In this document: in pieces, positions 1,967-61,380 of the stretch
Position numbering within the stretch: position 1 is the stretch's first letter
Layout: every line of letters begins with the position of its first letter
NCBI GenBank assembly: GCA_012295275.1
Contig: CM022672.1
Span: 18,166,001-18,230,000, forward strand
DNA length: 64,000 bases
Source of the DNA: Chrysomallon squamiferum
Taxonomy: Eukaryota; Animalia; Mollusca
Direction: 5' to 3'
Made by a program: the position numbers and the translations under genes
The notes under the pieces: generated by a model
What the model was told of the DNA's origin: nothing
Seen by the model: the letters and a program-made list of their open reading frames with translations, nothing else
The model's database searches: none

Positions 1967-2220
1967 AGGAAATTCCAGATGCAAGAATACCAAAACAGTT
2001 TTTGTCATCTTTATTTTTATCCGCGGAATCTGAATTTGGGATGGATTGTTAGTGATTAAGCACTGACAATTCATCCCAAAAGCAAATTGCATGAGTCACA
2101 ATATCACTGAGGGGTGGATCCAGAATTTCAAAAAAAAAGAGGGAGTCGGATGAGGAGAGTGTCGAGAGAAACAAGGGCTGTTCATCATTCTAACCATTTT
2201 TTTCCTGACTGGTATAAATA
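1967..2220 (+). promoter_or_regulatory. Possible upstream regulatory region of the cytokine-like gene
   Basis: kB-like AGGAAATTCC at 1967-1976, AP-1 TGAGTCA at 2092-2098 and TATAAATA at 2213-2220. Motif matches only. Confidence 0.3.
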
Positions 2221-2706
2221 TAAAAAAATTAATTGCTGATAGTCTGACAGTGTTTCTTCTATTGTATTTTCATTATAAAAGAAAACAAATAATAAATTGC
2301 TAACGCATAATAACTTAACATTTCTTGAATTTTTCACTTACTCTTGAAAAAATCCCGTTGTCGCGGGACACTGCTTGTAATTGGAACCAAACCAAACGGC
2401 CTCACTAAAGATTGACCCTGCGTCCACGTCCCAGATCGAAGTTTTAAGCAATTTAATATAGAGTCATTTATTTATTTATTTATTTATTTCCCCTATATTT
2501 GGTACGACCTGACCAAGACCATCGAAACAAAAGAGAGGCATTTTTTTATATATTTTGTTTATCGATTTTGAAGGTTTGCAGAAGGCTAGAGTTCCCGTGT
2601 ATGTTTCATACCTGGCGTCCAGTCAGGTAGAAGTATTGATCTTTCTGTCTTCTGACGAAAGTGAAAGGACAAAATTTATCTAAAAAAAAACCTCTGTGAT
2701 TAGTAC

Positions 2707-2737
2707 GTGTATCAGCAGTTAACTTTATTTATAACCG
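2707..2737 (+). CDS. Secreted helical cytokine-like protein, coding exon 1 (GTG-YQQLTLFIT; phase 1)
   Basis: Strong donor CCG|GTAAGG at 2737/2738. Joins in frame to the next exon to complete a signal peptide (M/V)YQQLTLFITAVSLAVVVCVSNG. An in-frame TAG lies at 2701-2703 and there is no ATG. Confidence 0.6.
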
Positions 2738-3126
2738 GTAAGGTTTTTTTCTTGTATTTCTATATTTTATTGTTTTAAAATGGGAAACTGAAAGATGATG
2801 AAGTCCGTTTCTTTAGAATTGATCTGTTTATAAGCGAACGATCTGTGTGAAAAATTATTGTTACCATCTTGAAATAGGACCATGAACATTCTTTACTTGT
2901 TTTGTGTAACTGGTTTGTATTAAAGTAAAATTTGCTTATAGATTTAAACTATCATTATGTCTTATTTTTATTATTATTATCATTATTATTTGTTGTTATT
3001 ACTACTACAACTAGTTCTAATAATAAACTGCTACTGTAATTACTACTACCAATTCTCTCATTTTTAAAATTTATAATTGAAAACTTTATCACTTTTCAGT
3101 ATTACGTACGTACGTACATACATACA

Positions 3127-3192
<66 letters not shown>

Positions 3193-3250
3193 CATACATA
3201 CCTATCCAGACTTTATATAAACATTTGCGGTATATGGTTTTCATTTGTAG

Positions 3251-3405
3251 CTGTTTCATTGGCTGTTGTGGTGTGCGTATCCAATGGACAACACTCATCT
3301 GATAACTCAGTCTGGCAAGACGTGAAATTTTCAGAGTTGATCGACAATATAGTGGCGAGCGCAAAAGAAGGATGTCAACTTGGAAAAAAAGTTTCGAAAA
3401 AACTG
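3251..3405 (+). CDS. Secreted helical cytokine-like protein, exon 2 (rest of signal peptide and predicted helix A)
   Basis: Acceptor tttgtag|, donor CTG|GTAAAT. 155 nt, phase 1 to 0. Encodes VSLAVVVCVSNGQHSSDNSVWQDVKFSELIDNIVASAKEGCQLGKKVSKKL. Confidence 0.8.
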
Positions 3406-3811
3406 GTAAATTACACAACTAAATATTTCAAATATAATATTATTTCAGTTTGATATAAGCAATGTGTTACCTATCTCTCTATCGATCTGTCTATATACCT
3501 ATTTCTCTGTCTAGATATTAAATCTGTATTAATATTTGAGGATACTTAATTCAGTATTATATTACATTTACATGGTAACATTTATTAACCATATATGTAT
3601 ATGTATGTATGTATTTGTATGTATGTATGTATGTATGTATGTATGTATGTATTTGTATGTATGTATGTATGTATGTATGTTTTTGTATGTATGTATGTAT
3701 GTATTTGTATGTATTTGTATGTATGATTGTATGTATGTATGTATGTATGTATGTATGTATGTATGTATTGTAAATGTGCATAAACATGTATTATTGGTTT
3801 TCGTGTTTCAG

Positions 3812-3937
3812 ATGAATTCTAGTTTCTTACAGTCAAAACGCTTACAGAAGATTGTAAAGCGTAGAGTCAGCAGAGGAAGATTGACAGTTCTCAATCAGAC
3901 TCTTCAGTCTTCTAATTTACAACATTCTCTCAATGAG
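3812..3937 (+). CDS. Secreted helical cytokine-like protein, exon 3 (basic predicted AB loop)
   Basis: Acceptor gtgtttcag|, donor GAG|GTAGGT. 126 nt, phase 0 to 0. Encodes MNSSFLQSKRLQKIVKRRVSRGRLTVLNQTLQSSNLQHSLNE. Confidence 0.8.
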
Positions 3938-3987
3938 GTAGGTGCTTACACCTTTACTGTCAAATAACATTATCTGTAAATGTTTAA

Positions 3988-4039
<52 letters not shown>

Positions 4040-4176
4040 GCGGTATCTGAATATTAAAAGTGTTTCTTTATTGGTATGAACGAATTAATTAATTACATTA
4101 TATGCATTTTAAGAGATTCTATTTTTAGAAACATTAAAAGTGACTTGTCTCTATGATTAATAAAAAAAAAAATTAC

Positions 4177-4216
<40 letters not shown>

Positions 4217-4551
4217 TATAAATAAAAAAAGAAAGAAACAAAAGGAGAAAGAAATAAGAAAATAAAAGAAAGAAAGTGAAAGAAATATCTAAAATAATAA
4301 TTATAATAATAAAAAAAAGTAAAAATAAGAAAAAAGTAAAAAAGTAAAATAAATAATTAAACCTAACCAAAACCATGTTACGTTGCGAATGTTACGAAAT
4401 GAGAAATATTTGATGAAATTCGAATGCGTACGTCTGGTTTGTCAGAGGTTAATTTTTCTGCAATAGTAAGTTAACTTCACTTGCACTAAACTATATTCAA
4501 AGACACACACACACGCGCACAAATGCGTAAATAAAACACTCTCTCTTTCAG

Positions 4552-4911
4552 AATCTTCTTACGGATTACACTGCACTGCAGAAATACACCCAGCTGTTCA
4601 GAGCAGTGAAGAAGCATTCAAAGATGCCCAGACGTCTCAGCCGCACCATGAAGAACAAGCTGAGAAATTTGCAAATTCAGCTGGTTGAAGTTGTCCTGTA
4701 TCGAGGCGAGACACCAGTCACGATGACTGGTGTCCCAGAAGACCTCCAGACAGTTCTGGATCGCAGAGCAACAATGGACCCAGTTCAGTTGGCCATCAAC
4801 GATTACGCCATAGCGAGAGAAATAGGACAGTTTCTTAACAGAATGGGTATTCTGTACTCTATGTATAACGAATACGAGAGCAGACTGTCTTCAAGAAAAA
4901 ACGTTTGCTGA
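4552..4911 (+). CDS. Secreted helical cytokine-like protein, exon 4 (predicted helices B, C, D and stop)
   Basis: Acceptor ctctctttcag|. 360-nt open frame, GC-richer than its flanks: NLLTDYTALQKYTQLFRAVKK...NDYAIAREIGQFLNRMGILYSMYNEYESRLSSRKNVC*. Confidence 0.85.
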   Translation, partial: NLLTDYTALQKYTQLFRAVKKHSKMPRRLSRTMKNKLRNLQIQLVEVVLYRGETPVTMTGVPEDLQTVLDRRATMDPVQLAINDYAIAREIGQFLNRMGILYSMYNEYESRLSSRKNVC

Positions 4912-6223: not shown

Positions 6224-6941
6224 ATATGTTTGTGTGTTTGTATGTTTGTGTGTAGACATATATAAATATAAATTTTTTATACAAAGATTTTATATAAAAT
6301 ATAAATGGCTAGAATCGAGGATTTTGCGTCTGTTTAGTCGAAGCTTCTGTGAGCCTTAGGCGGCCCCCTGACGTCAATCCCAGATTTGTTTGCCCCGTTC
6401 CGCTCAGCGATTAAGGGTTTTAGCCTCAATTGAAAAAGAGTCAAGTTACGGCCATAACATACGAATATATATATATATATATATATGATGGCCGCAACTA
6501 GATTCTTTTTACCCACGTACTCACACGCGCACACACACATACACACGGACACACACGCACACACGCACACATACACACAGACATAAACAAAAACGCACAG
6601 AGGATGCCCAGCAGAAACTTAATGGTCAATTCCTGCAAGCTATCCTGGTAAGGCAGACAAACTCCTTATTCTCGCCAACACTAAGAACATGGAAAACCTA
6701 CGCAATTCCTGTGTCATTTATGATAGGTAACGACAACTTCTGTTGATTCCCCACGATTGTTTCTACAAGATCTACACTCTTCATGCGGACATTCAAGTCT
6801 CCTTCCGAACAAGTCAAAAAAACGTCAAATGCGTTAAGCCTTTGAACTGTTGAAGACCGAAACAGGAAGAAACACACAACTTCAGCCCACACACGGAAGT
6901 GTCCAGATACAGGAATGCATTTTTCCCCACTATGCCCAAGG
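6224..6941. repeat. Segmental duplicate, copy B (downstream flank of the cytokine-like gene)
   Basis: Colinear match to 1-882 with scattered substitutions and one ~155-nt deletion. Confidence 0.95.
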
Positions 6942-7230
6942 AAAATGCACGTTAATGGTCGACCTCTCGAGTAAAGGAAGACGAAGTGTTTCGCAGACTT
7001 GCAGTTAGAGACAAATCCTCCGACTCTTCCTGCTGGGCCAGGCTGACAACGCGTGTCTTGAAGTCAATGCTGAGAGTCCACCAGGCAGTCAGTTACTCAC
7101 ACATCTTATTACTTAACACACTCTTACTGTTCCTTACGAGGTCTTACATCATGGAGTTTCCAAATTATCCCCACGGCCTAACAGTCTGTCGCGTAAATTC
7201 CCCACTTGATCTCGTAATATTTTGACCTGT
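6600..7230 (+). mobile_element. Decayed MULE transposase fragment, copy B (extends further 3' than copy A)
   Basis: Same motifs as copy A, continuing into KEDEVFRRLAVR. GC-richer than its flanks, with multiple stops and frameshifts. The 3' limit is approximate. Confidence 0.7.
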
Positions 7231-13057: not shown

Positions 13058-13127
13058 ATGAAGCTGTGTGTTTTGGTGTCTCTTGGGATAGTTGTGGTTC
13101 TGTCCTTACCACGTCAGAAAAGACAAG
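13058..13127 (+). CDS. Secreted chitin-binding (CBM14-like) protein, first coding exon: signal peptide and RQKR
   Basis: ttgtttcag|ATG; encodes MKLCVLVSLGIVVVLSLPRQKRQ; donor AAG|GTAAGA, phase 1. Confidence 0.85.
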
Positions 13128-13549
13128 GTAAGAACAACAATATTCACTTTTTACTCGACTCGGTTTTCTTATTCTATTTCTACATCAAGACGATCATCGT
13201 TTTCCGTATCAACCCTATTACATAAGAATCAAAAAAATAAAATAAAAATACACATAAAATATATCTGCAAGAAAGGAAACCCTATACGTTCCAAAACATA
13301 TCTGTCGCGAATGCGCAACAACGACAGCAACAAAACACACATTCACGAAAAGAAACAACAAAAACTACAGCAGCAGCTAGAATAACAGCAACACCAACAG
13401 AGACTCAACAACAACAACAACAACTGATAAAAAAAAAAAAAACTAACTACCAACACAATTTCGACATGGTATCAGTTTATCGTCTCTCACAAAGTTCTGG
13501 GTGAATTCACGAGAACTGGTTTTTGTTTATATTTGTCTCTTTACTGCAG

Positions 13550-13732
13550 CAAACATTCAGCTTTCGCCGGACAACTGCAACTGCTGGTTCGAAGTGTTCG
13601 AAGATGGCGGACAGAGCCAGACTCAGTGCTGTACGGGAACTCTAGTGTACGACCCCAACCAAAACCTGTGCGTCTGGCCCTCCGAGTACCAGGGCTGCTC
13701 CCCGACAGTCGCGGACGCACCCCAGGGCCGAA
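13550..13732 (+). CDS. Secreted chitin-binding protein, exon with atypical CBM14-like module 1
   Basis: Acceptor tttactgcag|, donor A|GTAGGT, phase 1 to 1. Encodes PDNCNCWFEVFEDGGQSQTQCCTGTLVYDPNQNLCVWPSEYQGC, matching the peritrophin-A C-terminal signature C..G.V[FY]DP....C.WP.....C. Confidence 0.85.
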
Positions 13733-14191
13733 GTAGGTACCAGAATGGCAGAAACTTAAAAATATAGACATGTATGTGTGCGTGAGTGTTAGCGTGCGTG
13801 CGAGCGTTCGTGTGTGTGTGTATTTATAGGCCAATGCACTTATCCAGACGCAAATATAAAAATAAGTATATATTCACACACATACACACAGATGTACATG
13901 AAGACACATGTAGTATTTGTACAGATACAAACATACAAATGTACGAAATTATACATACACATGTTTGTATCTAATTACAGTATAGGCGTATACAGTCTGA
14001 AATGGTTTGACCATTTATTTGCAGTTACGTAAATATATTTGCGCAGTTGATCTCACTGTAATGTTACTGTATTTAATTGTTAAAAACATCCAGATAGGAG
14101 TAGTAGTTCTCATAGTGGAAGTAGTAAAAAAAATAATAATAAATAAAAATACCATGACAGCGACGACGACGATAACAACCACAACAACATC

Positions 14192-14251
<60 letters not shown>

Positions 14252-14281
14252 GACAGGCAACACAACACAACACAACACAAC

Positions 14282-14313
<32 letters not shown>

Positions 14314-14397
14314 AATAATAATAAAGACAGGCAGCACAACACAACAACAACAACAACAACAACAATAACAATAATACTATTATATATTATATTACAG

Positions 14398-14660
14398 GCA
14401 GTGATCCTAACCCGTGTCTGCCTCTCCCGGACGCTAACCCGGATCAGTCGTACCACCGCGCACTGCCAGGATTCTGCAACAAATTCGTCATGTGCAACTT
14501 CGGCGTGCCCAACGAGGAGCCGGTGTTCTGCCCCGCCAGCGACAACGGCACTGAGACGATGTTTAACCCCGACCTACACGGGCCAGGGCTCGGCGGGTGC
14601 GACCCTTCGTTTAACGACTGTGGGGGTGTTGTTGTGGCGCACCCAGACAAACTGGGATGA
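14398..14660 (+). CDS. Secreted chitin-binding protein, last exon with CBM14-like module 2
   Basis: Acceptor attacag|. Encodes SDPNPCLPLPDANPDQSYHRALPGFCNKFVMCNFGVPNEEPVFCPASDNGTETMFNPDLHGPGLGGCDPSFNDCGGVVVAHPDKLG*, with six Cys in CBM14 spacing. AATAAA at 14725-14730. Confidence 0.85.
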
Positions 14661-20865: not shown

Positions 20866-20908
<43 letters not shown>

Positions 20909-21302
20909 TTTGTTTTATTTATGGATACAACATTAAATGAAATAACAATCCTTGTTTCTAATGACGTCACAATATTTGTTTGTTTCTCTTTTATTTATGG
21001 ATACCAAATTAAATGAAATACAATCCTTGTTTAATGACGTCAAATATATGTTTGTTTCTCTTTATTTATGGATACCAAATTAAATGAAATAACAATCCTT
21101 GTTTCTAATGACGTCATGACATGTTTGTTGTTCTGTTTATGGACACAAAATTAAATGGAATGACGTTAAAATTTTGTTGTTCTGTTTATGGACACAAAAT
21201 TAAATGAAAAAACAATCCTTGTTTCTAATGACGTCATAACTTGTTTGTTTTCGTTTTATTTATGGATACAAAATTAAATGAAATAACAATCCTTGTTTCT
21301 AA
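20781..21302. repeat. ~73-bp minisatellite (~7 units) in Prrx intron 2
   Basis: Repeated unit 'tttatggatacaaaattaaatgaaataacaatccttgtttctaatgacgtca'. Confidence 0.92.
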
Positions 21303-34565: not shown

Positions 34566-34932
34566 GTAATAATAATAATAATCATATATATATATAAAAA
34601 ATATAAAATAAAATAATTCAATACAAAAAAATTAAAATAGTAATAAATAGAATTATTAATAAAAAAAATGTTTATAATATAAAATAAAGTTAAATTTAAA
34701 ATAAAATAAATACTACGTGAAAAAGTTCTAAAATACGTACATAAATGTTTCATAATGTTACTTTGTGTAAATAGAATATTTAAAAGTACATAATCTCTAT
34801 AGACGATAACGAATTTCAAAAAGTAAATGACGTGATGAAGTTTCGAAAAGAGTATGAGATAAACTATTCGAGATAAAAAAAAGGTTTCATAAAGCATATA
34901 GGATTATAAAAGTTTTATAATCGATAGATATG

Positions 34933-35280
34933 TTTCCCAATGTAATCATTTTGTTCTCAGTGTAATTATTTTAAAGTTTCTCAATGTAATTATTTAAAAG
35001 TTTCTCAATGTAATCATTTAAAAGTTTCTCAATGTAATTATTTAAAAGTTTCTCAGTGTAATTATTTAAAAGTTTCTCAATGTAATATTTAAAAGTTTCT
35101 CAATGTAATTTTTTAAAAGTTTCTCAGTGTAATTATTTAAAAGTTTCTCAATGTAATCATTTAAAAGTTTCTCAATGTAATTTTTAAAAAGTTTCTCAGT
35201 GTAATCATTTCAAAGTTTCTCAATGTAATTATTTAAAAGTTTCTCAGTGAACACGATTTAAAACGTTTCTCAATGTAAAC
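34933..35280. repeat. 24-bp minisatellite (aatgtaattatttaaaagtttctc), ~14 copies
   Basis: Head-to-tail, highly similar units with no spacers. Confidence 0.95.
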
Positions 35281-38200
35281 ATGATCTCAAATGTTTCTTA
35301 ATTTACAGAATACAGAAAAAAAAAAGGAAAAAAATTTCATATTAACATTCTGTGCATCATATTTCCTTTTGTTATTAAAAGATAATAATAATTATATTGA
35401 AAAAAAAAAAAAAAAAAAAAAAGAACCAGAAACAATATCTTAAACAGAAATAAATTATCTTAAATACATTATCCTTACATTTTCACTCTTCAAATTAAAA
35501 AACCCACTAACTATTTTATGTTCTGCTGTACAGTTAATTATGCTTGTACCCTTCATGCCGCTGTATTACGCCACTGAGGCGCCTGCACAGGATACTTACA
35601 ACTCGTAATGGGGAGGCGAGGGGTTGGAAGAAGGGCAATAAATAACGCGAATCGTTCTGAAATAGAAAATACTTAAATCTGTACCATTTCAAGTACGACG
35701 ACTTTGTAAAATAAAAATTTGTTTCGTACGCACGTTAGTATAAATATTCAAGTACGTACGTACGTATTATACCTGTGTACGTTGTCAGTAAAGATTGTGT
35801 GTGTACGGACGAACGTACATACGTATGTGTGAATTCACACACACACACACACATATATATAAACACATACACATAAACACACATACAGACATACAAACAT
35901 GCATATATATATACACACACACACACACACATACATACACATACACATATATAAACATACACCTACACATAGACAAACATACACAAATACAGGCACATAC
36001 ACATATAAAACACACACACACACATATGTATTTACTTGAGAATTGCGCCATGCTCACGAATATAATATTACTACTGCTGTTGTTGTCATGATCATTTTCT
36101 ATTGTTTCAAAGTCTATTTTTGCCACTTTATTTTTAATTTTTTTAAACATTTTTGCTGTTGTTTTAGTTGTTGTTCTTTGTTCTGTTACTGTTACAAATA
36201 TCTCATTACACGAAACTTAAGTTACGAGACATTGGAATAGAAAGAGAATCTTTGACTTGGAGATTTAAAAAAAAAATAATAATAATAATAATATAAAATA
36301 AATAAATAAATAATGTAAAAAAAAATGGAAAGAAAATTAAAAAACAAAAGAATAAGATAAAAAAAAATATATATATAAAAAGTTTTAAAAATGGAACAAG
36401 ACGGGGAAAAAAAAAAAAAAAAAAAAAAAGAAAAAAAGAAAAAAAAAAAGGAAACACTTACAAGAAGCCTACAAATTCTTTCAGTCCAAAAAATGCAATA
36501 ATAATATTTTGCCATATGTGCCTGTTCAAGAACGTTTGTCGACAGTACATGACTGAGCATTCCACAACGATGTTCTGTGTTCACGTCGTAAAGTACTGTG
36601 CGGGATGCAGCAGGCTAGACGTTAGCTAAATAACCGAGAAGTGGCCTGTCGTAAAACATACGTGTACATCGAGGAGAAACTCCGACAACTAAGTGTGCAG
36701 CTACTTGAAGCACTAGAGAATAATATACGTACAAGTTTTATTGTTGAAATTAATGTACGTTTGTATTTGTGTTTGTGTGTGTGTATTTATGTATATATGT
36801 GTATGTGAGTTTTTAATGTGTATATGAGTATGTTATATATGTGTTTGTATGTTTCTGTGTATGTATGTATGCATGTATATATTATGTATGTATGTATGTA
36901 TGTATTTATGTATGTATGTATGTATGTATGTATGTATGTATGTATGTATGTATGTATGTATGTATGTATGTATGTATGTATGTATGTATGTATGTATGTA
37001 TGTATGTATGTATGTAGTATATTTGTAAATAATCGAAGAAATTCGAAAGACCAAACAGACAAGGATGAAACATAAATCAAAAGAGGGAAAATACTATAGC
37101 GTTGCAATTACCTTAACGATGACTGCTACCACTAACAACTTACTAATAATATCACTACTACTACTGCCAACATCAGTACTACCACGCCTACTGCTACTAC
37201 TCCTATTGCTACTACTATAATCATTGTTATTACCATTAATACTACCATAACCTACAATTATAACCAGCACCATCACTACCACTACTGTATCACTACTACC
37301 ACTAAAACCACTATTACTATAATCGTATTGGCAGATATTTGCACTAATATCTAATTTCATATTTAAAACAAACCAAAAAAAGCAAACAAGAAAGATACTG
37401 CAACAATAACAACAACAACAGTAATAATAATAATAAACAGATAAATAAATAAGTAATAAACGAATGCATAAAATAAACAAAAGGACCAGAAAAAATTAAT
37501 AATAATAAAAAAATAGTGATTTTCGACAAAACATATCAGATTCCAAAATGCTATACTTTCTTACGCATGACAAACACAACCATCATAAAAAAAAAAAAAA
37601 AAAAAAACTATCTCCATTAACAAAACAAAAAAACAAAAAAAACACCCCCAAAACATAACCTTTCTGTAATTATTATTTATTTTAAAAAACGTGCTTTATC
37701 TTTATCTTTTTCTCTTTTCCACACAACTCCGAGATAGACGTTATTCTGTGCCGTTTTAATTGCCGTCTCTCCTCAACCACTCAGCGAAACGTACACAAAC
37801 AATCTCAGATAGGGACATTTTACTATCAGCATCCACTTCTTCAAGGCCGATACCATTATTATTATTCACTCGACATGCGTGCTTACAAACACACTGGTGC
37901 GAGGAACCAGTGCACGCCGGAGCGGAACATGTCTAAATAACCGGTGCACGTGGCTTTGTTGGGAGACGTTTGTGCAGAGCGTTCTTGTAATAAAGGCTTT
38001 GATGTCAGGGTTTGCGGATAAACTACAACGGAACAAGATCGGGGGCTGATAAATCTTCAATTATCTAGAAATGAATGATTTTTTTTTTTTTTTTTTTTTT
38101 TTTTGGGGGGGGGGGTTTTGTTGTTGTTGTTTTTTTTTTTTTTTTTTTTTTTGGTGAGTAGTTAAGCGACCTAAACGGCAGTGGTGGAAAAAGAAATAAA

Positions 38201-48623: not shown

Positions 48624-49674
48624 GTATATATATATGTGTGTGTGCGTACTTGCATCAATGTGATATACGAATTCTGTATAGTATGCTAGCAGGCGCAGTA
48701 TTTAGTTATGTACCTGCAAATGTGTGCGAATGTCTGTTATGTGAGAGTATGCGCGTACAAAGTATCTATTTCTGTATCTGAGTAGATGTGCGTAAGAACA
48801 GAACACCAAAAATAACACATATGGAACACTCAAGTATTGTAAAGAATCGAGACACTTTGATATCTCAGTTCAAAGATATCGCGTTACAGGTTCACGTTTC
48901 AGCCTTATTTCAGAAACGTTCCCCAATAACTGACAGTCTGCCGTCATGTTAATAATTTTTCACTGTTAAATAACAGGTTTTTATTTACGCTAAAACACAT
49001 GTTAATTTACTTGAAACAGACACGTATAAACCATAACTGTAAATATCCTGAACCGGTCCGAGTTAATTTCGCAGAGTCGAGCAGATAAATTAGACACGAT
49101 GGTCAGTTTCAATTATCGTAATGGTGCTTATGAAAATATTAACTTGGCTTAAGACAATGCAACGCGAAAAGAAAGCAGAGATATGAGAGACACGGAGGTC
49201 AGTTTGAATGTCGCCTACGAAATCTCGCGACAGAGCGGGGTTTTTTTTTTTTTTTTTTTTTTATACGTTTAATTGTCAAGAAGAACCTGTAAATATCACC
49301 TAGGCGCGTTTACAAATTTAATTGTTGTTCGTATCTTTTTCTTCTTTTCTTTTTTTTTTTTTTTTTTAAATTAAAATAACATGCAAATCTGAATGTTGCA
49401 GTGAAACGTTATACAAAATATTACACAAATGTTCCAGTGTGCAGGATTCAGTAATTTCTTAAATTAAATTGATACGTGGAAAAATAAACAATAAAAATTG
49501 CATATTCTTATGGAAATAATTGTGTACGTCGGCTGTTAGATATTCCAGCTATTTTAAGTATCACATAAAAGGAATTTCATTATTGTAGCTAGGGACACAA
49601 TAACATATACAGATGTTGTAGAACTATACATAGGAATATCGCATTTAATTATTAAATTATATTTACGTTATCGT

Positions 49675-50260
49675 ACAAACTTATCAAAATAGCATGTACA
49701 AATACTGTATTAACTTATTATATAGCATGTACAAATACTGTATTAACTTATTAAACAGCATGTACAAATACTGTATTAACTTATTAAATAGCATGTACAA
49801 ATACTGTATTAACTTATTAAATAACATGTACACCTATTGTATTAAATTATTAAATAGCATACAACTACTGTAGCAACTTATTAAATAGAATGTACAAATA
49901 TTGTATTAACTTATTAAATAACATGTACGAATATTGTATCAACTTATTAAATGACATGCAGATATTTTAGCAACTTATTAAATAACATGTGCAAATATTG
50001 TATTAACTTATTAAATAGCATGTGTACCTATTGTATTAAATTATTAAATAGCATACAACTACTGTAGCAACTTATTAAATAGAATGTACGAATACTGTAT
50101 TAACTTATTAAATGACATGGACAAATACTGTATTAACTTATTAAATAGCATACAAATATTCTAACAACTTACTAAACAACACATTCGCTTCTATTATAAC
50201 TTACTAAATAGCATAGATCTATGATATTAACCAATTAAATAATATACAAATGCTGTAGCA
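49675..50260. repeat. 33-bp minisatellite (aacttattaaatagcatgtacaaatactgtatt), ~17 copies
   Basis: Tandem units, including 31-bp variants and a repeated multi-unit block. Confidence 0.95.
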
Positions 50261-50689
50261 AGATTTTTGAATAACGTAGGAATTTTACTTTTTCAGTAAT
50301 TTATTAAATTATAATTCTATACAAATCTCATTACTACTGCAATATATTAAACACTGCCTACACTTTTCAGTAATTTAATTTACTTCATTTATAACTGAGT
50401 CCAATTCTACTTTAAAATTATCAAGCATTTTTATAAACGACGAAGTAATAAAAATGTAAGATATATTACAATATTATAAATAATAATGGTAGTAAAATAT
50501 ACAAATATTTTTCGTGTACTTTAATATATTTGTTTGTACAGAGTCGCTTTAATATTTTATTTATTTGGCCAATTTTGATTAAAAATAATTGTTTAGTTCA
50601 TTTATTTATTTGCTTTTCTCTTAGTTTATTCATTCGTTCATTCACGTTATCCTTATTATTATTATTATTATTATTAATATTAATATTAA

Positions 50690-58980: not shown

Positions 58981-61029
58981 ACACGAGATAAAACAGTGCA
59001 ATGGGAGATATAGCAATATTAAAGAAAATTACAAATATAACTCGATGTAGCAGTATTAGTGAAAATAAATTATATACTCAAAATGGCAGTAGAAGAGAAA
59101 GATAAAATTATAAATGCTACAATAATTAGAGAAAATGAAAAACGCATCCAACAGAAAACATAACCAAATATTAGAAAATATTAAAAGCATAATAAAAATA
59201 ACAAAAAGAGCCGTATTAGAAAACAAATGTAATAATAATAATAATACACCACGTAGCGATCTTATAGAAAATTATAAATAATATTTGCAGTAGTAGTTTT
59301 AGAGAAATATGTGATAAAGGAGTTTCCTATAAAATGGTTATTAGTATAACATTAATTTTTATACATGAAGAAAAACAAAATATATATGTTAGTGTGGACA
59401 GCATGACATTAAAAGTATTTTTTCCTTTTATAATTTTCAGTTCATTTGTAACTCATTTAACTAAAATGTTTTGTTACCATAGAAACAGTAATTTAACTGA
59501 AAGCTGTATTAGTATGGAGATAGTTTTATACTTTCGAATTTGTATGGTAGTAACTTAATTAAAAATCGCAAAAGAGTCCACAAATTGGTGATTTTATCTA
59601 ACTATATATATTCATACTTACTTAAAAATTAAAAAAATGTACGTTAATATAGAAATCAATTAAGAGATTTCTTCAATAATTTTCGAATTAATTTGGTAGT
59701 GACACAGCTGAAAAGAATAATAGTTACATAGACTTTGTTTAAATTCATTTGAAATATTATTATAAATCTGAAACAGTTAGCTACTGTTTATATTTTAGAT
59801 TATCTCCATAGAAACTTAAACGAAAAATGGAAAATAAATTGGAAAATATATTGTATTTTAGAATACTGAATATGATAGTACACAAATAATATGTTCATTT
59901 TGAAATTTTAATTTGTAGTACCTTATTTGAAATTGTATATAACATCAATATAAATGATTTTTTGTTGTACTTTCTAATTCCTTTGCTGATAATATAACTG
60001 AAAAGGGAATGATAAGACAGAGCATTTTATTTTTAAATTCATTGCTACGCAACTTAAAACACACAAACAATAAAATGCTTTATGCATTAAATACTACAGA
60101 TTTTGTTTACAATTGATTTCAGAGTTGTTTTGTTGTTTTGTTGTTGTCTGTAGTTCTTTTTTTTTTTTTTTTTTTTGTTGATTTTCTTTTTCATTTCTTT
60201 TATAACATATAAAATGAAAAATAGATGATAGTATTGAAAAAAAGTCTGTTTACGTTAGAATTACGTTAGACATTAGAGAGAAAAAGATTAAAAAATAATA
60301 ATAATAAACGTTGGTTTATTTCTACATTTCAGATTACTTGCAAAGTAATTTAACGAAAATAATGGTATTTTGTCATCATTTTACTTTAATTTCATGGTCA
60401 TTTTAATTATTATTGAACTTAGGTTGACTTTAGAATGTATTTCTAACATATATGATAAATATCTATTTTATTTATTTATTTTGTATTTAAATTTATTGCA
60501 AAGTAAATTATCGAAAAACTGATGACATGTGTTAGAAAGAGTCTTTACTTATTATTTCTTTCATAATAACTTTAATATATAATAGTATTACAGCGGTCAG
60601 TTTCCCTTCTTACATAATTTAATTGAATGCTGATTAAACTGGAACTTGAGAGAAAAATTCGTGAAGAGAGGCTGACATTAGCATTCATTTCACAGCAACC
60701 TAAAAAAGAGAAATAATAACACAGTGATAGTTTATTTATTTTATATTTTAAATTCATTATTAAGAAGAAAAAGAAAAAAAGGTGAATGATGATTTAGAGA
60801 ATATGAGTTAACTTTAGAATTTATTTCATAGTAACTTACACAAAAACTGGATGTATAGAGATATAACGGGTTACTTTACTTATTTTAGAATTAATTTGGC
60901 AATGATGTAATTGAAAATAGTATAAGTTGATAAAAATAGTTGATTTCTGTGTACAATTCAAATTGGAAAAAGCATGAAACAGTTGAAATATTTTTATATG
61001 TCAATTCATGGTAACATAACTGATAGAAT

Positions 61030-61380
61030 TGAAACAGTGGATAATATTAGAATTTATTTCATAGTAACATAACTGAAAACACTGACATCATTTAAACAGT
61101 GGATAACATTAGAATTTATTTCATATTAACATAACTGAAAACACTCTGACATCATTTAAACAGTGGATAACATTAGAATTTATTTCATAGTAACATAACT
61201 GAAAACACTCTGACATCATTTAAACAGTGGATAACATTAGAATTTATTTCATAGTAACATAACTGAAAACACTCTGACATCATTTAAACAGTGGATAATA
61301 TTAGAATTTATTTCATAGTAACATAACTGAAAAAACTCTGACAATACTGAAACAGCGGATAACATTAGAATTTATTTCAG
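61030..61380. repeat. 64-bp minisatellite (~5.5 near-perfect copies) within an older degenerate array spanning ~59400-61700
   Basis: Unit aaacagtggataacattagaatttatttcatagtaacataactgaaaacactctgacatcattt. Diverged 'ttagaatt.atttcatagtaac' cores occur upstream, e.g. at ~60815. Confidence 0.92.

Follow-up and report, generated by a model that had tools for sequence, protein, structure and literature searches.

Do molluscs lack a ligand for their own JAK-STAT receptors, or has the ligand escaped notice? Molluscs have the receptor, JAK and STAT, and a BLAST search (E ≤ 1e-5, ≥30% identity) found no IL-6-family ligand in any invertebrate screened, its authors proposing alternative ligands (PMC13203501). 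The available text of a second paper places gp130 in molluscs and locates no IL6 superfamily members in invertebrates (PMC8226699). The question is raised by a gene at the left end of a 64,000-nucleotide stretch (the window) of the snail Chrysomallon squamiferum (GenBank assembly GCA_012295275.1, contig CM022672.1, positions 18,166,001 to 18,230,000, forward strand). A first-pass annotation of this DNA had read the gene as a long-chain four-helix cytokine and had remarked that such ligands are poorly identified in lophotrochozoans, a gap that these two papers bear out as far as the available text goes. Our analysis points to a probable long-chain helical cytokine in an animal group whose ligand is reported missing.

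The gene and its gastropod relatives

All four helical segments quoted by the first-pass annotation are found on the + strand within the window. Three GT-AG-bounded exons join in frame there and end in a TGA at 4909-4911. The parts of the gene are:

2704..2737, +: exon 1 of the first-pass annotation, with a strong donor (CCG/GTAAGG); putative role discussed below
2879..2912, +: probable first coding exon, with ATG at 2882, a purine at -3, 10 hydrophobic codons and a phase-1 donor (CTG/GTTTGT)
3251..3405, +: exon with the predicted remainder of the signal peptide, the N-terminal segment, the helix A candidate and Cys52; conserved in P0006
3812..3937, +: exon with the long basic A-B linker, the start of helix B and both sequons
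4552..4911, +: exon with helix B, the short link, helix C and the long C-D crossover loop, which carries a short helix
4552..4911 (continued), +: helix D, the tail closing in Cys223, and the stop

The earlier description, four exons giving 223 residues, holds for the last three exons, with intron phases 1/0/0; its exon 1 has no ATG, and the count of 223 is valid only with GTG as the start or with the ATG 2882-2912 exon. G+C content is 0.37-0.46 in the exons versus 0.24-0.26 in the introns. The two N-glycosylation sequons (N64 and N90) and two mature cysteines (Cys52 and the C-terminal Cys223) that had been noticed were located in the spliced model. The mature chain is calculated at about 200 residues, with an isoelectric point (pI) of 10.1 (9.95 in the relative P0006).

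A HMMER search with exon 4 against 1.84 billion representatives (E ≤ 0.001) gave five matches, two of them full-length: P0001 (55% identity, E 1e-36) and P0002 (49% identity, E 5.5e-27). The remaining three, short matches within long repeat proteins, were discarded. P0002 is the uncharacterized LOC121382962 of Gigantopelta aegis, a peltospirid gastropod and deep-sea vent snail. A profile search gave three matches among 4223 candidates and added P0006; this protein and P0007 derive from G. aegis LOC121384475 and LOC121384471, and at least three loci of the family are present in that snail. These loci resemble our gene at about 50% identity, gapless over 212 residues. They differ in their RefSeq models, whose starts fall within or close to the counterpart of exon 2 or exon 3 and which have no assigned function.

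Exons 2-4 and their junctions are conserved: the spliced model aligns with P0006 without gaps (106 of 212 residues identical), crossing both phase-0 junctions and keeping both cysteines, and exon 2 on its own (3251-3405) reaches 47% identity (pairwise E 3e-15). The 212 aligned codons are free of stops and frameshifts. Across the window protein, P0006 and P0001, helix D is best conserved (18 of 29 residues identical) and the B-C link retains 1 of 8. Judged from sequence, the orthologue alignment is beyond chance and the gene is real; it is likely intact, with a secreted product.

The first coding exon

Where does the reading frame begin? The first-pass annotation placed the coding start at 2707-2737. 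That start is doubtful, a GTG start at 2707 being possible but less likely: the stretch opens with GTG, has no ATG and follows an in-frame TAG (2701-2703) by two codons, and X1, the only public run containing it (unspliced contigs), spans 2496-2954 with eight differing letters, none at 2707. An alternative exon, ATG 2882-2912 (31 nt, phase 1), also yields 223 residues. Its 10 hydrophobic residues have a mean Kyte-Doolittle (KD) value of 1.8 versus 0.94 for the 2707-2737 exon, and the resulting N-terminus is hydrophobic (best 11-mer KD 2.67). The AG just 5′ of 2879 has a pyrimidine share of 0.6, equal to that of the real acceptor at 3251, and therefore the donor at 2737 may close a non-coding exon. 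It is more likely that 2704-2737 is the end of such a 5′ exon, and ATG 2882-2912 is the probable first coding exon on the strength of these signals. In 1000 resamples of 2738-3200, such an exon occurred in 19% when any GT was accepted and in 0.2% with a G/GTnnG donor, a stricter rule fixed post hoc, after the site at 2912 had been seen. The signal peptide would start at ATG 2882, and the first junction would join 2912 to 3251.

The G. aegis RefSeq models P0002, P0006 and P0007 have starts without an evident signal peptide, and the N-terminal extension of P0007 may be intron sequence read through. The 5′ annotation is probably wrong across the whole family. A hydrophobic half-signal in exon 2 is preserved in both species. 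Variants in run X1 include those at 2888 (Ile3Val, in the proposed first exon), 3821 (Ser66Arg, abolishing sequon N64) and 3844 (synonymous).

The predicted fold and its likeness to cytokines

Structure prediction gives helices B (about 17-28 residues), C (24) and D (28 or more), joined by a short B-C link and by a long C-D crossover that contains a short helix. The confident B-C-D part superposes, in a structure search, on the last three helices of IL-6, CNTF, IL-11 and CLCF1, at 10-17% identity in the structural alignments to gp130-type cytokines; growth hormone, prolactin and leptin tied within about 1 Z. The short B-C and long C-D crossover limits the top rows of the search to two fold families. 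The size, helices and loop lengths are those of a long-chain class I helical cytokine, for which a mature chain of some 160-200 residues and helices of 20-30 residues are typical. The loop layout proposed earlier was recovered: an A-B loop of about 30-39 residues (39 with 8 Lys+Arg, partly predicted helical at low confidence), a B-C link of about 8-10 and a C-D loop of 26 with 5 Pro+Gly. The claim of four amphipathic segments survives in part. Against shuffles of the single sequence, only A has a significant hydrophobic moment (p 0.0015; B 0.21, C 0.48, D 0.27); when conserved hydrophobic positions are scored instead, periodicity is significant in B (p 0.003) and C (p 0.026), borderline in A (0.065) and absent in D (0.70).

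Comparison of ESM features points the same way. The top score for exon 4 is 0.91 (206 of 256 shared), and all ten family-bearing matches belong to one clan (Hormone_1, CNTF, IL11, IL6, LIF_OSM, GCSF), with recognition at 2285, below the 2300 mark. P0006 has a best score of 0.79, again with ten of ten in that clan, and serves as a lead only.

In long-chain cytokine genes the first coding exon is short and ends in phase 1, and the later introns are in phase 0 (1,0,0,0). The phases here are 1,0,0: the second and third are backed by the orthologue protein, we infer the first, and the fourth intron is absent. The accessible part of PMC3271213 holds some of this layout, giving IL-6 five exons and four introns and placing the first IL-11 intron 7 bp past the start. 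The introns had been called exactly those of IL-6; this fits the two phase-0 introns and the probable tiny phase-1 exon and otherwise overstates the likeness, no intron separating helices B, C and D.

Three lines of evidence, partly independent of one another, thus favour the fold idea: the B-C-D structure search, the ESM neighbours and the exon layout. A long-chain class I cytokine fold is quite probable. Helix A, from exon 2, would complete the bundle after a 40-residue linker, and Cys52 and Cys223 may form a disulfide.

Several findings weigh against it. Helix A has a predicted local distance difference test (pLDDT) score below 50 and the A-B crossover is unplaced, such that the match to cytokines is limited to the last three helices with the C-D crossover, and no model showed the complete up-up-down-down bundle. 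A ferritin-like fold ties with the cytokine fold on Z. None of Pfam IL6, IL11, CNTF, LIF_OSM, GCSF, Hormone_1 and Unpaired reached its gathering cut-off in the three window exon pieces and four relatives, and a sequence search of PDB gave no match. The IL-6/G-CSF/MGF pattern C-x9-C-x6-G-L-x2-[FY]-x3-L, as given for IL-6/G-CSF in the available text of PMC3271213, matches none of four proteins; its tail, relaxed post hoc, occurs once per protein in all four, in helix B (5.6% of shuffles), the four being kin. In the gp130 family, site 3 is marked by a Trp or an FxxK where helix D begins (PMC10022904, in the part available); FxxK occurs in none of the four, and the window protein has no aromatic between residues 155 and 188. 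By defining motifs, as read from sequence, the protein is not an IL-6 orthologue. All four relatives, as annotated, start without an evident signal peptide, and hence either their tiny first exon has gone unannotated as well or the family may not be secreted. Finally, the first-pass annotation miscalled the first exon, which weakens its interpretation.

How does the protein compare with known systems? With IL-6, IL-11, CNTF, CLCF1 and G-CSF it shares size, predicted B-C-D topology, the short helix in the C-D loop, the probable tiny phase-1 first coding exon, the two phase-0 introns that bracket the A-B linker and, in relaxed form, the part of the IL-6 pattern that falls at the end of helix B. 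It differs in having no C-x9-C, no Trp/FxxK at the start of helix D and no B-C-D intron, in its C-terminal cysteine and in being very basic. Growth hormone, prolactin and leptin share the predicted fold family, the ESM top matches (with Hormone_1) and a C-terminal cysteine; there is no sequence match, and the cysteine pattern is another, growth hormone having a small C-terminal disulfide loop plus a long-range one. Drosophila Unpaired 1-3, the basic, secreted ligands of Domeless, would be the protostome functional counterpart. They give no Pfam match; Upd proteins bind matrix and are much longer.

Proposed mechanism, rival explanations and meaning

We put at roughly 0.65 the whole mechanism, in which a secreted long-chain class I cytokine signals through a gp130/Domeless-type receptor and JAK-STAT. 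The basic helical protein of 223 residues, signal peptide included, would be retained near its source on heparan sulfate because of its pI of about 10. Conserved faces of helix D plus helices A/C would contact the receptor, which would be dimerised or clustered and act on JAK and then STAT. A two-site, receptor-homodimer assembly would be likelier, because the site-3 aromatic of IL-6/IL-11/LIF is absent. We infer secretion, helix A packing, the disulfide, the receptor and the role, which may be that of an immune, wound or growth signal. The JAK-STAT ligand reading of the first-pass annotation is partly supported, keeping a predicted cytokine-like B-C-D fold without the full bundle or the IL-6-specific hallmarks.

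A protein with this fold may have another mode of action: it may be a hormone-like factor or one bound to matrix, pair by a free cysteine into an IL-12-type heterodimer, or use a receptor unlike gp130/Domeless. This is unlikely: long-chain class I cytokines of known function all use class I receptors and JAK-STAT, and the ancestral receptor was dome/gp130-like, being inferred at the protostome-deuterostome split in the available text of PMC1963337. Slightly less likely still is a secreted helical protein restricted to this lineage and unrelated to cytokines (of shell, mucus or antimicrobial function, for example), whose three helices resemble theirs only by a common arrangement. The modest Z and pLDDT, the empty Pfam and PDB searches, relatives limited to G. 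aegis plus one further record, the pI of about 10 and a neighbour that resembles a small chitin-binding secreted protein would all suit such an orphan. However, the short B-C and long C-D crossover pattern leaves two fold families among the top rows; the cytokine one is favoured by size, by the lengths of helices and loops, by the exon phases and by the ESM neighbours. Rapid divergence is usual in cytokines.

Two further explanations are very improbable. A lost start (GTG for ATG) or the lack of a signal peptide would make this a young pseudogene or an intracellular protein; the strongest donor (2737) does end an exon without ATG, and the database relatives are all annotated with signal-less starts. 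But the open aligned codons and the exon-2 half-signal kept in both species speak against it, as does the ATG exon at 2882, which has a good context, is of a kind present in 0.2% of resamples under the post hoc rule and is altered by the second allele only from Ile to Val. A ferritin-like (Dps/DUF892-type) four-helix protein is the least probable. The matches use the first three helices of the targets (for example 2qqy, 1-115 of 139; 4cmy, 2-115 of 163), and a fourth helix is therefore required after D, where only a 14-residue tail is present. The diiron ExxH motif occurs once in P0006 and once in P0002, and neither the window protein nor P0001 has it; the window protein also carries a predicted signal peptide and sequons.

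Upstream of the gene is one weak lead:

1968..2098, no strand: possible NF-kB-like (1968) and AP-1 (2092) sites

When the 1 kb upstream was resampled 5000 times, the two occurred jointly in 1.3% of the draws and each by itself in 10-14%, the patterns having been picked after the sites had been seen. Direct copies at 2-881 and 6225-6943 (95% identical, 720-880 bases, nowhere else in the window) flank the gene. They may represent two copies of a mobile element, or they may mark the border of a 6.2 kb tandem unit, in which case further copies could lie to the left of the window. A three-exon gene at 13058-14660 (+) is predicted to encode a cysteine-rich, probably secreted protein of 173 residues, whose match to chitin-binding peritrophin-A is weak (E 0.044) and lies below the cut-off. 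On the - strand, 19219-57378 holds a paired-type homeobox gene with an OAR motif, which appears Prrx-like, with exons near 57.3 kb, 21.8-22.0 kb and 19.2-19.5 kb and a first intron of about 35 kb. Minisatellite-like tandem arrays occupy 20896-21284, 34932-35302, 49635-50261 and 61019-61379.

A literature search, made without most subscription journals, found no report of this snail protein family. Oyster IL-12p35-like and interferon-like proteins have been described, which could lessen the novelty. In its available text, PMC12162339 follows IL-12 receptors back to the mollusc era but does not do so for p19/p28. Two 2026 preprints, in the portions available, applied structure search to interferons in amphioxus and lamprey; the first, which leaves class I ligands aside there, reports that secreted proteins with an interferon fold were not found in other invertebrates.

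It is conceivable, at somewhat less than even odds, that molluscs never lacked IL-6-type ligands: the gastropod family would descend from a bilaterian long-chain cytokine, its fold and intron layout kept and its sequence similarity lost, and would be a native gp130/Domeless-like ligand, possibly serving host-symbiont signalling in vent snails. Such genes would escape notice through mis-annotated tiny first exons and empty sequence searches. A gastropod candidate with named orthologues makes the missing-ligand question testable and, if the reading is true, the long-chain cytokine fold and its gene layout would date back to the protostome-deuterostome ancestor.
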